Assembly: GCA_964427425.1 (NCBI GenBank)
Contig: CAYRUD010000001.1
Location: 74,152-138,151 of the forward strand
Source: an uncultured bacterium
Lineage (GTDB): Bacteria > Chlamydiota > Chlamydiia > Chlamydiales > FEN-1388
Length of the DNA stretch: 64,000 nucleotides
Reading direction: 5' to 3'
How positions within the stretch are numbered: position 1 is the first letter of the stretch; each line of letters starts with the position of its first letter. The translations under genes were made by a program, and so were the position numbers. Positions 31,738 to 44,089 of this stretch are shown here, one piece after another. The notes under the pieces are model-generated. The model made no database searches and was not told the origin of the DNA. It saw only the letters and a program-made list of their open reading frames with translations.

Positions 31738-32892
31738 ATGATACGAAAAAGCTCTCTCTCACATGCTGCGAATATTTCTTTAGGGTCCTATGTTGTCGCT
31801 TCTTCTTTAAAAGTATTATCAAGGCATCTTCGTGAAGAGCCAAGCCTTCAATCAATTCTGCATCATGAGACTCCCTCGCTATTTCTTTGTATTGATAAGA
31901 ATGTGCCCCTCCAAAAGCAAGAAGCCTTAATTCAAGAGGTCTCGTCTTTTTATAAGCGTGTTGAGACATACCATCTTGATGGAGGAGATGAGGCTAAAAC
32001 GTGGGATTATTTAGAACGTCTTATAGATTATGCCTTCTCAAGGGGAGTAAACCAATCATGGCATATTGCTGCATTCGGCGGCGGTGCTCTATCAGACCTG
32101 GTTGGATTCTTCTCATCAATTTATATGAGGGGGTGCCCACTTATTTTATTTCCCTCTACATTGCTCTCTATGACAGACGCAACCCTTGGAGGAAAGAATG
32201 GAATTAATTTTAATGGAATAAAGAACTTTATTGGCTCTCTTACGTTTCCAGCTTTTGTATACTCGTCTGTTGATCTTCTCGATGAATTCTCTCAATTGGA
32301 TATCTTACAAAGCTCGGCCGAGATGTGGAAACATGCGCTCCTTCACTCAAAGGAGGCCCATACTCAATTTATATCACTCTTTTCACGCCTTTCGCAGTCT
32401 AAAAATAGTATCTCTCATGACGAGTGGGTAGATGAGATCTTCTTCAATACCCAAGTAAAAATGTCGATAGCAAGCCAAGCATTAAACAATCCTGAAAAAA
32501 GGCATCTTCTTAATCTTGGACACACAGTTGCGCATGCGCTTGAGGCCGCAAGTCATGGAAAGATGCCTCATGGGATTGCTGTCTTTTATGGAATCATCGC
32601 AGAAGGTTTCTTAGGGAAGAAAATAGGAATTGTAGACAGCTCATTTTTCGATGAGATCTATTCCTTCTTTGATGAGAGGGTTCGTTCTGTCATGAGATGG
32701 TCTGATGCCATCAATGTCGAGATTTTCAGAGCCGCAATGGAGAAAGATAAAAAGAATATCTCTTCGAAGCCTGCAATGGTTTTTCTTCGCTCTTACGGTT
32801 TGCCGTTTGAATGTGGTCTAGGAACATATCGCTACAATATTTCAGAAGAAGACGTAGATCTTCTCATAGCTTACCTTAAAAGATTGTTCTGA
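31738..32892 (+). CDS. aroB: 3-dehydroquinate synthase
   Basis: FGGGALSDLVGFFSSIYMRGCPLILFPSTLLSMTDATLGGKNGINF and LNLGHTVAHALE..PHGIAV match the AroB nucleotide-binding and metal-binding blocks. Confidence 0.85.
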   Translation: MIRKSSLSHAANISLGSYVVASSLKVLSRHLREEPSLQSILHHETPSLFLCIDKNVPLQKQEALIQEVSSFYKRVETYHLDGGDEAKTWDYLERLIDYAFSRGVNQSWHIAAFGGGALSDLVGFFSSIYMRGCPLILFPSTLLSMTDATLGGKNGINFNGIKNFIGSLTFPAFVYSSVDLLDEFSQLDILQSSAEMWKHALLHSKEAHTQFISLFSRLSQSKNSISHDEWVDEIFFNTQVKMSIASQALNNPEKRHLLNLGHTVAHALEAASHGKMPHGIAVFYGIIAEGFLGKKIGIVDSSFFDEIYSFFDERVRSVMRWSDAINVEIFRAAMEKDKKNISSKPAMVFLRSYGLPFECGLGTYRYNISEEDVDLLIAYLKRLF

Positions 32893-33035
32893 TCTTTCTC
32901 ACTTAAGGTTTCATCTCAAAGTGTAAACCTTCATGCATTTCTAAATTGGGAAGAGCTCTATATTATTTTATTTACATTAATTTTTAATTAAAATTAAAAT
33001 TAATAAGTATTTCAATCTTAATATTAGAGGATTAT

Positions 33036-33932
33036 ATGATTAGTAATTTCAGTTCAAATAACAATGGCATTAATCTGTCTGTAGATAATATTCCATGTCC
33101 ACCTCTTTGCCCTAAGAATATTTCTTACTTGCCCGTAGAAATCTTAGCTAACATCGTAAGCGAGTTTATGCCTGTAGATGCTGCATGGGAAGCTCGTGGA
33201 ACTTGTACAGCATTTTATAGCGCTTTTAAGGAGAGTGCGCATCAAACTCGCCTTACAAAAGCCGCTGAATCGATCAGAGAATTAATTAGCAAAGCAATCA
33301 ATAAGAAATCTATTTTTGAGGAAATCGCAGCTCAATATGTTAGTCAGCACTTTGCGGCTGATTTTCTCCAGAGTTCTTTTAAAGTGAGAGGAGTAATTTC
33401 CGTTGGGTTTGGGGCAGAGGGTAATCATGTAGCTGTCGCAGATAATCCAAATGCAGCGGAAAATGACCTCTACGTCGTTTACAATCTTTCAATCGCGCAG
33501 GAAAAGTTTAAAGAAATAATCGACAACGACCCCGAAGCAGGAAAGATTTTGCTCGATCTTACTACTTTAAAAAATAGGATGGCTTTAGCCGATAATATCT
33601 TGAGCTCAGCTTCTGCGACTGATTTAGAGGTATATAAAGCTAATGGAGAGAGTCTATTCTGCGATAAGGAGATATCCTCTCAGTATCCTAAGCTGCTTGA
33701 TAAGGTGTTTATGCAAGCTGCAAAAGAAGGTGAATTAAGCATTCGAGGGTTTGTTAATAGCTTGGTTTGGCCTGATGATGCGAATAATGGGCAAACGCTG
33801 GAAGAGCAAATTATGCCTAATCAAACGCCTAAAGAGCGAGAGTTCATTAAGTGTGTGTTCAGACAGCCTGAGCTTTCTTCAATAAAATTTGAGGATATCA
33901 CCGAGGCTCAATCTTCCGAAGAGAGTCGATAA
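33036..33932 (+). CDS. F-box-like domain protein, paralog 1
   Basis: 298 aa with RBS-like AGAGGA upstream. The N-terminal LPVEILANIVSEFMPVDAAWEARGTCTAFYSAFKES fits the F-box consensus LPxEIL..I....-(V)C..(W/F). The remainder is unassigned. Confidence 0.7.
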   Translation: MISNFSSNNNGINLSVDNIPCPPLCPKNISYLPVEILANIVSEFMPVDAAWEARGTCTAFYSAFKESAHQTRLTKAAESIRELISKAINKKSIFEEIAAQYVSQHFAADFLQSSFKVRGVISVGFGAEGNHVAVADNPNAAENDLYVVYNLSIAQEKFKEIIDNDPEAGKILLDLTTLKNRMALADNILSSASATDLEVYKANGESLFCDKEISSQYPKLLDKVFMQAAKEGELSIRGFVNSLVWPDDANNGQTLEEQIMPNQTPKEREFIKCVFRQPELSSIKFEDITEAQSSEESR

Positions 33933-33979
33933 GAAGACGTCAGTGGATTTGTAGCCTAAAATATGCTTCATGATGAGTA

Positions 33980-42351: not shown

Positions 42352-42971
42352 TAAGTATGAGTCCCCAGTTTATTGTAATCATTGGTCTTCAAGGAGCAGG
42401 AAAGTCTACACTCGGAAGCTTGATCTCTTCTGCTCGCTCTCTTCCCTTTTTTGATACGGATCGCTGCCTTGAGTCGAAATGGTTGAAAGAAAAGCAAGGC
42501 AATATCCGCACGCTCTTCACTGAGTGGGGTGAAAAACGCTTCCGAGAGGAAGAAGGAAGAATCTTAGAGGCAATAATTGATTCGCATTCGAAACCAAATA
42601 GTGAAAAATCACCATGTATTATCAGTGTAGGAGGAGGCTCACTACAAGCTCTTCAATGGGTACGTGAGAGGAAAAAAGAATGTCTCATTGAGTATATTTA
42701 TCTCTTTCAATCCCTTGAGATTTTCTTGCGTGAGAGTATGAAAAAATGGATAGACTCCAATCGAGAGTCTCCATTGTGGCTTCTATCAAGGCTCGAATTG
42801 ATGGGGCTTCAGGATAGTACTGATAAAGAACTAGTAGCATTCCTTGTAGAGAAGATATGGGTTGAGCGTCATACGTTCTTTCAATCAATTGCCAATTTCA
42901 TCTATGACACTGAACGATTCACATTACAGATGATCGAAGAAGATCTTCTTTCCTCGAACATGTTGTCTTAA
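42348..42971 (+). CDS. aroK: shikimate kinase
   Basis: P-loop IVIIGLQGAGKSTLG, FFDTD and ISVGGGSL. ATG 42348 overlaps the aroA stop (ATGA). The ORF is also open from ATG 42330. Confidence 0.8.
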   Translation: MISMSPQFIVIIGLQGAGKSTLGSLISSARSLPFFDTDRCLESKWLKEKQGNIRTLFTEWGEKRFREEEGRILEAIIDSHSKPNSEKSPCIISVGGGSLQALQWVRERKKECLIEYIYLFQSLEIFLRESMKKWIDSNRESPLWLLSRLELMGLQDSTDKELVAFLVEKIWVERHTFFQSIANFIYDTERFTLQMIEEDLLSSNMLS

Positions 42972-42988
42972 AGCGTTAGGTAAACTGT

Positions 42989-44089
42989 ATGGCGAGCAAT
43001 AGTTTCGGATCTATCGTACGAGTCACCACTTGGGGAGAGTCTCATGGTAAAGGAATAGGGTGTGTCCTTGATGGATTTCCCTCAAATATTCCTCTCAATG
43101 AAGAAGATATTAATCTAAAGCTTGCTCGTAGATCTCCAGGAAGGAGTCATCTCACTTCTCCTCGAGCTGAGGAGGATAAAGTCCAAATACTCTCAGGGGT
43201 ATTTGAGGGAAAAACAACTGCAGCTCCTATAGCCTTGTGGATTGAGAATCGCACTTATGATTCATCTCCATATCATGAAACCAAACACATCTTGCGCCCA
43301 GGACATGTGAGCTTTACCTACAGTCAAAAGTATGGCCATTGGGACTACCGTGGGGGAGGAAGGGCGTCTGCTCGAGAGACAGCGGCAAGAGTTGCGGCAG
43401 GAGCTTGTGTCGAAAAATGGCTTTCACAATATGGCATTCGGGTTACAGCGTGGCTGTCGCAGGTAGGAGGTGTCTCTCTCTCAAAAGAGTGGGAAGAGCG
43501 TAATGATGTAGCATCATGTTGTAATTCAAGCCCCCGAGGTATCTTTTGCCCCGATCCTGAAGTAGAGATGGCATTTTGTTCGCTTCTTGAATCGCTTGTT
43601 GTTGAAGGAGACTCGGTTGGAGGCGTTGTGACATGCCGTATCGATGGTGTCCCTTCTGGGATAGGTGAGCCTATATATAACAAGCTAGAGGCGTGTTTGG
43701 CTCATTCAATGATGGGGCTTCCTGCATCGAAAGGATTTGAGATAGGAGAGGGGTTTCACGCATCATCTATGCGAGGATCTCAATATATCGATGGCTTTAT
43801 AAAGGATCCCGTTACTGGAAAGATAATACCTTCTTCTAATAGAGCAGGAGGAATTCTCGGAGGGATTTCAACTGGTGAAAGTATTGTCTTCAGGGTTGCC
43901 TTTAAGCCAGCTTCGAGTATACGCATTCCTATTCCATCCGTTGATGCTCATGGAGATGAGTGTATGTATGAGACTCCAAAACGAGGCAAGCACGATCCTT
44001 GTGTCGCTATTCGAGCGGTTCCAGTTGTAGAGGCTATGGCCTATTGCACGATTGGTGATTTGATCGCCCAGTCAAACTCATTGAAGTGA
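42989..44089 (+). CDS. aroC: chorismate synthase
   Basis: FGSIVRVTTWGESHGKGIGCVLDGFPS, RPGHVSFTYSQKYG..DYRGGGRASARETAARVAAG, GGILGGISTGE and KHDPCVAIRAVPVVEAM are all canonical AroC blocks. Confidence 0.93.
   Translation: MASNSFGSIVRVTTWGESHGKGIGCVLDGFPSNIPLNEEDINLKLARRSPGRSHLTSPRAEEDKVQILSGVFEGKTTAAPIALWIENRTYDSSPYHETKHILRPGHVSFTYSQKYGHWDYRGGGRASARETAARVAAGACVEKWLSQYGIRVTAWLSQVGGVSLSKEWEERNDVASCCNSSPRGIFCPDPEVEMAFCSLLESLVVEGDSVGGVVTCRIDGVPSGIGEPIYNKLEACLAHSMMGLPASKGFEIGEGFHASSMRGSQYIDGFIKDPVTGKIIPSSNRAGGILGGISTGESIVFRVAFKPASSIRIPIPSVDAHGDECMYETPKRGKHDPCVAIRAVPVVEAMAYCTIGDLIAQSNSLK

Follow-up and report, generated by a model that had tools for sequence, protein, structure and literature searches.

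In a 64,000-nucleotide (nt) stretch of contig CAYRUD010000001.1 from an uncultured member of the Chlamydiales (hereafter, the window), the genes of the shikimate pathway form a cluster, aroB-aroDE-aroA-aroK-aroC, that is interrupted twice by pairs of paralogous genes for eukaryote-like proteins: the probable F-box-like genes Fb1 and Fb2 lie between aroB and aroDE (insert 1), and the PPP-type phosphatase genes PP1 and PP2 lie between aroDE and aroA (insert 2). These interruptions are real insertions specific to this lineage, and we consider it quite likely that their source was accessory genes of the same genome, which would have been duplicated into the aro junctions and subsequently in tandem. 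An initial annotation of this DNA had proposed that two insertions split a formerly contiguous cluster, and this proposal is borne out by two relatives, L002 and L050, in which the five aro genes are packed together beside the same left flank. An open reading frame (ORF) check recovered the nine ORFs named in that annotation, all on the plus strand:

31738..32892, plus strand: aroB, 3-dehydroquinate synthase (DHQ_synthase and DHQS_C domains; TIGR01357, 236 bits)
33036..33932, plus strand: Fb1, probable F-box-like protein of 298 amino acids (aa), paralog of Fb2 and first gene of insert 1; no counterpart in L002
34203..35105, plus strand: Fb2, probable F-box-like paralog of 300 aa, second gene of insert 1; no counterpart in L002
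35349..36980, plus strand: aroDE, fused type I 3-dehydroquinate dehydratase and shikimate dehydrogenase (DHquinase_I and Shikimate_dh_N domains)
37059..38822, plus strand: PP1, PPP-type phosphatase of 587 aa (Metallophos domain), first gene of insert 2; no counterpart in L002
39181..40674, plus strand: PP2, PPP-type phosphatase of 497 aa (Metallophos domain), tandem duplicate of PP1
40918..42351, plus strand: aroA, EPSP synthase (TIGR01356, 332 bits, exceeding the cutoff)
42330..42971, plus strand: aroK, shikimate kinase (SKI domain); an alternative in-frame start at 42348 gives an ATGA overlap with aroA
42989..44089, plus strand: aroC, chorismate synthase (PF01264, 400 bits; NF003793, 416 bits)

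All five shikimate enzyme families are thus present as intact ORFs according to Pfam and NCBIfam. More specifically, aroA and aroC score above their NCBIfam equivalog cutoffs and aroB, aroDE, and aroK below them, a shortfall to be read alongside the L002 orthologs of aroB and aroDE, which are similarly divergent. The alignment of aroDE with its L002 ortholog displays the dehydroquinase motifs SYH and KCA, as well as the dehydrogenase motifs VTTPLK and NTD. The ATGA overlap of aroA and aroK described initially was seen at 42348-42351; the longest aroK ORF begins in frame at 42330, and the gene call in a second strain, L055, starts at the ATGA.

The contiguity of the ancestral cluster was assessed by synteny. 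L002, a Logan assembly, is the closest relative recovered via aroDE, and a profile scan of genome contigs with an aroA alignment yielded 46 chlamydial loci, L050 among them; each locus was mapped by tblastn with the window proteins, plus Pfam checks. The gene order in L002 is lepB (minus strand), CT021 (minus strand), aroB, aroDE, aroA, aroK, aroC, a small ORF, DUF2608, SufE, and a Trp/Tyr permease (minus strand), with a 4-nt overlap between aroB and aroDE and 11 nt from aroDE to aroA. Both flanks of the window match this order, the right flank being o137, DUF2608, SufE, and the Trp/Tyr permease. L050 has the same layout from lepB and CT021 (both minus strand) through aroB-aroDE-aroA-aroK-aroC, with overlapping ORFs. 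The left flank of the window is anchored by two genes:

28357..30366, minus strand: lepB, signal peptidase S26 (Pfam Peptidase_S26), a conserved backbone gene found at the same place in L002 and L050 (64% aa identity to its L002 counterpart)
30850..31629, minus strand: Chlamydiae-specific CT021-family gene (PF24683), divergent from aroB and syntenic in L002 and L050

Synteny with L002 extends in the window from PhoH (17436) to an ABC transporter (51800), with aa identities of 41-42% for aroB, 35% for aroDE, 50% for aroA (N-terminal region included), 30% for aroK, 72% for IleRS, and 83% for PhoH. Within that span, the only window ORFs lacking an L002 counterpart are those at 22954-28135, Fb1/Fb2, PP1/PP2, and P0116, a third PPP paralog described below. 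These are the four insertion sites of a 37-kb syntenic stretch, and three of the four hold tandem paralogs. Shared gene order shows, at the level of sequence comparison, that this lineage descends from an ancestor with a compact aroB-aroDE-aroA-aroK-aroC cluster beside lepB and CT021. Across the sampled Chlamydiae, tight aro clusters come in three arrangements, with a few dispersed cases besides: B-DE-A-K-C; aroDE on the minus strand, divergent from aroB-A-K-C (~14 loci); and A-K-C-B-DE (~13 loci). The initial annotation had taken the last of these, the Chlamydia trachomatis type (A-L-C-B-DE), as its reference; that order does exist in the ~13 loci, but the one relevant to the window lineage is aroB-aroDE-aroA-aroK-aroC. 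No gene of the PPP family or of the window's F-box-like family lies between aro genes in any of the 46 chlamydial loci or in L002, so both pairs are insertions specific to the window lineage. The second strain, L055 (99.16% nt identity over 21.7 kb), has the identical split layout, which excludes an assembly artefact.

We found the clearest traces of origin in insert 2. The GDxHG, GDxxDRG, and GNHE motifs are present in both PP1 and PP2, whose proteins are 67% identical over 435 residues. At the DNA level, positions 37521-38840 and 39370-40692 are 73% identical over 1,328 nt, with the 3' hairpin included in the duplicated block. The third paralog, P0116, is located 3.6 kb past aroC and 7 kb past PP2, where its neighbours are the Trp/Tyr permease and a 154-aa ORF; it shares an upstream element with PP1:

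47679..49745, minus strand: P0116, third PPP paralog, 688 aa; absent from L002, i.e., itself an insertion
36970..37011, plus strand: 42-nt AT-rich element upstream of PP1, 36/42 identical to 49799-49759
49759..49799, minus strand: copy of the element upstream of P0116, identified by sequence comparison

The core of this element occurs at these two sites only in the 64 kb, with 0 occurrences expected by chance. PP1 and P0116 are 37% identical as proteins, and residues 17-134 of PP1 are homologous to residues 26-139 of P0116; PP2 lacks that N-terminal homology. The N-terminal half of P0116 also contains a 39-nt tandem repeat (3.4 copies, 49067-49200) encoding 13-aa units (...LPSLSALDQKIAP...). 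Because the block shared by PP1 and P0116 starts 9 nt ahead of the aroDE stop codon, inserted DNA supplies the final codons of aroDE. The element may be a shared regulatory site. The initial remark that the insertion mechanism is not obvious can consequently be improved upon for the phosphatase insert, which bears clear signs of local intragenomic duplication.

The best PDB sequence matches of PP1 and PP2 are the eukaryotic PP2A-C, BSU1, RDGC, PP1, and PP5. An AlphaFold2 model of PP2 built from 44 homologs reached a predicted local distance difference test score (pLDDT) of 88.7, with residues 1-58 disordered and a long helix at 330-361; in a Foldseek search against the PDB, all of the top 50 matches were eukaryotic PP1, PP2A, PP5, or RDGC (E ~1e-13; target-normalised template modeling scores of 0.70-0.75). 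Residues D139, H141, G176, D177, R181, G182, G208-E211, H270, R417, and G418 are invariant in the 44 family members, and H419 and H421 are nearly so (90% or more). By their motifs and by the full catalytic fold of the predicted model, PP1 and PP2 are PPP-family proteins. A total of 135 relatives were found at 33-44% identity, and every source-named one, Simkania included, is chlamydial; two members from another sample are single genes at unrelated loci. Judging from these relatives, the family is widespread in environmental Chlamydiae and not a recent eukaryotic import. Our literature search found no paper describing this chlamydial PPP family. The eukaryotic subunits PP1, PP2A-C, PP5, and RDGC share with it the full catalytic fold, the GDxHG/GDxxDRG/GNHE motifs, and the later His residues; the chlamydial proteins differ in their low identity to them (only 15-18%), in a disordered or unique N-terminus of ~60-150 residues, and in a helical insertion between the catalytic halves (H330-361 of PP2).

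Two weak similarities in the vicinity of insert 2 were rejected. An ORF in the PP1-PP2 spacer (38870-39088) matched aroDE residues 278-328 by blastx (E 0.002) and could have been taken for an aroDE remnant; Pfam and a hidden Markov model of 33 chlamydial aroDE proteins found nothing in it, frame-breaking indels separate the two strains there, and we regard the match as chance. An o137-like remnant upstream of aroA amounted to a 15-aa match (E 0.016), which is too weak.

Insert 1 consists of distant paralogs: Fb1 and Fb2 are 22% identical (E 3e-10). Neither matched Pfam at default settings. When the N-terminal segments were searched alone, F-box and F-box-like were the sole Pfam matches, below threshold (E 0.035-0.15); against PF00646 and PF12937, whose gathering cutoffs are 20.5 and 24.3 bits, Fb1 scored 13.2 and 14.3 bits and Fb2 12.5 and 13.0 bits. 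An exhaustive profile search of 1.8 billion representative proteins returned a sole further family member, P0156, whose F-box passes the Pfam threshold (22.0 versus 20.5 bits) and to which the Fb1 N-terminus is 39% identical. P0156 belongs to a second tandem pair, at a locus unrelated to aro (L006, 10001-11062 and 11095-12216). The same two assemblies contain both pairs (NCBI contigs of 355,086 and 257,879 bp; Logan contigs of 55,199 and 26,593 bp), which delimits a four-member F-box-like family of a single species. A profile of the four N-termini was also searched against the PDB, and 9 of its 11 matches were F-box domains, all aligned over the F-box (LPxE...W/Y helices), among them FBXO42 (E 0.008), FBXW7 (E 0.04), and Skp2 (E 0.24), as well as FBH1 and FBXL3. 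As these profile matches are weak but consistent, we accept an F-box-like identity of Fb1 and Fb2 as probable. The initial description of all four inserted genes as eukaryote-like is therefore well supported for the phosphatases by the PPP fold of PP2, and moderately so for the F-box genes by the P0156 score and the PDB matches. A further F-box-like gene adjoins aroDE in a Parachlamydiales metagenome-assembled genome, L033, where a 347-aa protein (3621-4664, minus strand) with a clear F-box-like N-terminus (LPYEVTVMILGYLPF...) sits next to aroDE (minus strand), within the 5.5 kb that separate aroDE from aroB; tblastn with Fb1 and Fb2 at E 1e-5 gave no match in L033.

Signs of a foreign origin were sought at both inserts. 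The four inserted genes do not stand out from the window distribution in GC content, GC at third codon positions (GC3), or codon-usage likelihood, so that their composition is native. tRNA and Rfam scans of the window found nothing, and, in agreement with the initial annotation, neither a tRNA nor, among the Pfam domains of the window ORFs, a transposase or integrase was detected. The junctions share no direct repeat of 10 nt or more, nor were flanking or terminal inverted repeats or target-site duplications found at them. Accordingly, the hallmarks of a mobile element or genomic island (integrase, transposase, tRNA target, repeats, atypical composition) are lacking, and the native composition together with this lack points to intragenomic duplication rather than recent transfer. 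We propose that illegitimate recombination or segmental duplication would have placed copies of two accessory genes from other parts of the genome exactly at the aroB|aroDE and aroDE|aroA junctions, each then being duplicated in tandem. PP1 would be a copy of the lineage that also gave P0116, taken along with its AT-rich promoter region, and PP2 a later tandem copy of PP1, 3' hairpin included; insert 1 would be a pair from the species-restricted F-box-like family, whose other two members are the tandem pair with P0156 on a different contig of the organism. Neither a mobile element nor recent horizontal transfer would have played a part, and the aro operon would be one of several places hit. 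Another of the insertion sites, at 22954-28135 (minus strand) between a HAD hydrolase gene and lepB, contains ORFs of 189, 633, and 774 aa without L002 counterparts, of which the latter two are tandem paralogs (33% identity) with sub-threshold leucine-rich repeat (LRR) matches.

The initial annotation further described a very AT-rich stretch upstream of each inserted gene and a hairpin after each, and reasoned that the metabolic operon should be broken into three transcription units. The four upstream stretches have GC contents of 0.156, 0.242, 0.167, and 0.275, relative to an intergenic mean of 0.33, and no other intergenic DNA of the window is as AT-rich as the first and third. Similarly, all four hairpins fold stably (z-scores of -2.8 to -5.3, calculated from folding energy against shuffled sequence), but hairpins 3 and 4 have no U-tract, and none of the four was recognised on the plus strand by a scan for consensus terminators. 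These features are as follows:

32940..33035, plus strand: AT-rich region upstream of Fb1 (GC 0.156), with a promoter-like TTTACA-18-TAAAAT at 32971-33000
33980..34017, plus strand: hairpin 1, after Fb1; 9-bp outer stem, moderately U-rich tail (folding energy -20.9 kcal/mol, z -3.8)
35180..35226, plus strand: hairpin 2, after Fb2; nested stem and then a U-rich tail (-20.4 kcal/mol, z -3.6), the best terminator candidate
38832..38859, plus strand: hairpin 3, after PP1; 11-bp stem, no U-tract (-18.5 kcal/mol, z -5.3), within the PP1/PP2 duplicated block
40684..40712, plus strand: hairpin 4, after PP2; 10-11-bp stem, no plus-strand U-tract (-16.6 kcal/mol, z -2.8)

Promoter-like sites matching at 10 of 12 positions precede Fb1 (32971-33000), Fb2 (34010-34039), and PP1 (TTCATA-17-TATAAT, 37004-37032), while the spacers preceding aroDE and aroA contain no sigma-70-like site that reaches 9/12; overall, the promoter scan was not enriched relative to shuffled sequences (39 found, 34.8 expected). 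A short terminator-like stem followed by T5 occurs at 40819-40835 (plus strand), ~80 nt upstream of the aroA start, and with a z-score of -0.3 is no better than shuffled sequence. Given that hairpins 3 and 4 lack U-tracts and that no promoter-like site precedes aroDE or aroA, read-through is at least as plausible as clean termination. A clean division into three independent transcription units is plausible, and we lean slightly against it. The aro genes are intact and probably still expressed, with read-through past imperfect hairpins, weak unrecognised promoters, or both as potential sources of their transcripts.

Comparison of the window with L055 indicates how the inserted and resident genes diverge. 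The phosphatase genes (37059-40674) hold 59 of the 185 substitutions, as well as a 6-nt indel after 39265, with most of these differences located towards the N-terminus; their non-synonymous divergence per site (pN) is 4 times that of the backbone, and the ratio of non-synonymous to synonymous divergence (omega) is ~0.5, values that fit fast-evolving host-interaction proteins. For the aro genes, there are 11.5 synonymous versus 16.5 non-synonymous differences, i.e., an omega of ~0.42 versus 0.12 for other backbone genes (Fisher p 0.019), on tiny counts. Their pN equals that of the backbone (0.0036), and the gap in omega comes from locally low synonymous divergence (pS): aroB-Fb1-Fb2-aroDE is near-identical between the strains (pS ~0.003), whereas lepB and DUF2608 have pS of 0.03-0.06. 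This contrast suggests mosaic recombination between strains. We found indirect hints of type III secretion in the disordered PP2 N-terminus (1-58), the eukaryote-like domains, and the faster protein evolution between strains. The inserted genes probably encode putative secreted, host-targeting proteins, namely, an SCF-ubiquitin-ligase mimic and protein phosphatases, each with its own promoter.

Several observations weigh against the proposed insertion by intragenomic duplication. The exact ancestral arrangement is known from L002 and L050 only, both distant (aroDE 35% identity), and with no intermediate genomes the insertions are undatable. The F-box-like pair left no DNA-level trace of its source and no target-site duplication; moreover, the AlphaFold2 model of Fb1, made from a 3-sequence alignment only, has a pLDDT of 33.8, too low to be of use. 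As PP1 and P0116 are only 37% identical as proteins, their 42-nt element could persist by regulatory constraint instead of reflecting a recent common origin, and the duplication linking them could have run in either direction. The scarcity of matching relatives, together with the proneness of Chlamydiae to gene loss, leaves room for a split layout that is ancestral, with L002 and L050 having secondarily lost the four accessory genes. We give this account almost no credence: precise deletions would have had to occur independently at least twice, each time at two junctions and in such a way as to restore the overlaps of start and stop codons, and such repeated precision makes loss in the relatives far less parsimonious than gain in the window lineage. 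In addition, all three aro arrangements are tight without these genes, and the F-box-like family is confined to one species among the 1.8 billion representative proteins. The eukaryote-like domains and the cassette-like anatomy of each gene (AT-rich promoter, gene, hairpin) might alternatively speak for recent horizontal transfer or a mobile element (genomic islet, integron-like cassette, or transposon) from a eukaryotic or bacterial source. That origin is highly improbable in view of a composition indistinguishable from that of the neighbouring genes, the missing tRNA, integrase, transposase, junction direct repeats, and terminal inverted repeats, the Chlamydiae-wide PPP family whose source-named matches are all chlamydial, and a third paralog with the same upstream element 7 kb away.

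Two further explanations concern why the inserts are tolerated or retained. Relaxed selection on a decaying aro pathway would agree with the scores of aroB, aroDE, and aroK below the equivalog cutoffs, with their being among the least conserved backbone genes relative to L002 (42%, 35%, and 30%), and with the elevated aro omega between strains. We nonetheless judge decay to be very unlikely, since the five ORFs are intact in both strains, the aroDE catalytic motifs are kept, aroA and aroC exceed their cutoffs, and the unchanged pN with low local pS suggests, on very small counts, that the region is mosaic or recombined and not under relaxed constraint. Functional recruitment, in which the effector-like genes would owe their retention to co-transcription or co-regulation with aromatic amino acid biosynthesis and their promoters would now drive aroDE and aroA-aroK-aroC, is likewise unlikely. 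It draws on the single strand shared by all nine genes, on the 10/12 promoter-like sites before Fb1, Fb2, and PP1 and none before aroDE or aroA, on hairpins 3 and 4 without U-tracts, and on the nearby Trp/Tyr permease; against it, the promoter scan is not enriched over shuffles, and both the similar accessory insertions at non-aro sites (22954-28135 and 47679-49745) and the unrelated genes inside other chlamydial aro clusters argue for neutral placement. A specific form of such wiring, with the AT-rich promoters (42-nt element included) answering a common regulator and read-through at the U-less hairpins coupling the putative F-box and PPP effectors to shikimate expression, strikes us as a long shot; if true, an environmental chlamydia would be tying its manipulation of the host to the supply of aromatic amino acids. 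Duplication of resident accessory genes into the aro junctions remains the reading we prefer.

Other parts of the window contain further genes of potential relevance to host interaction. A 396-aa protein encoded at 59-1249 (minus strand) has a DXD glycosyltransferase domain and a weak match to the TcdA/TcdB catalytic domain; it is a candidate effector of the toxin-like glucosyltransferase type. Another lineage-specific expanded family may be represented by three paralogous ORFs (5264-7522, 9763-11967, and 12250-14412, minus strand; 720-752 aa, 32-41% identity, no Pfam domain), which are interrupted by a 505-aa ORF. Eukaryote-like or adhesin-like domains were also observed in genes at 4085-5182 (plus strand) and at 14551-15933, 16224-17027, and 59522-63498 (minus strand), comprising MORN repeats, a bacterial SH3 domain, a SWIM zinc finger, HEAT repeats, and IPT/TIG domains with autotransporter-like motifs.

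If the proposed origin holds, the locus illustrates a route by which obligate intracellular bacteria gain host-targeting genes, in that intragenomic copies with their own promoters would enter junctions of backbone genes and then duplicate in tandem, and even a translationally coupled metabolic operon can receive such insertions. It also brings forward two candidate effector families, i.e., the species-restricted F-box-like proteins and the uncharacterised, Chlamydiae-wide PP1/PP2A-like phosphatases with a helical insertion, and offers a natural test case of whether or not read-through transcription can buffer the disruption of an operon. The finding leaves current views on how chlamydial genomes evolve unchanged.

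Interruption of the aro cluster is not unique to the window, given that same-strand non-aro genes also lie between aro genes in L031, L038, L042, and L052. The genes inserted there are unrelated to those of the window, and within each locus they are also unrelated to one another; the window differs in its tandem paralog pairs. From N-terminal readings only, the intervening genes comprise a 7-kb block with folE- and PTPS-like genes in L031 (11197-18285); a putatively secreted 543-aa protein with a hydrophobic, signal-peptide-like N-terminus in L038 (11340-13383); a HicB-like antitoxin in L042 (11933-12370); and a 367-aa ORF without assigned family plus an Rpn/PD-(D/E)XK-like nuclease ORF in L052 (11732-12835 and 13888-14862). 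Our literature search found no paper on aro gene order in Chlamydiae. The C. trachomatis cluster, CT366-CT370 in the order aroA-aroL-aroC-aroB-aroDE, resembles that of the window lineage in its five genes, aroD-aroE fusion, and tight clustering; the window lineage differs in its rotated order beside lepB and CT021 and in being interrupted twice. Bacterial F-box effectors include Legionella AnkB/LegU1 and Agrobacterium VirF. For Fb1 and Fb2, the likeness to these effectors would consist of a short N-terminal F-box in a secreted protein and recruitment of host Skp1/SCF, with an unrelated C-terminal domain and no sequence relationship implied.

The closest parallel is provided by the Parachlamydiaceae, which expand F-box, BTB-box, and other eukaryote-like families and have acquired species-specific ubiquitination-related proteins via gene duplication (Domman et al. 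2014; PMC4209131), tandem arrays being a hallmark of these expansions (PMC4209131). The window is alike, although with other families and at a far smaller scale, in that tandem F-box-like, LRR-like, and PPP pairs are intercalated in a conserved backbone. It differs in that its F-box-like family is small (four members), without massive expansion and with no homologs detected outside one species; in that a C-terminal partner domain of the LRR, WD40, or BTB type is not recognised in its F-box-like proteins; and in that its insertions lie inside a metabolic operon, a setting left unmentioned in that paper, where the word 'operon' does not occur. The split aro cluster adds a further case to a known type of genome evolution, and is a fairly ordinary expansion of a host-manipulation gene set.

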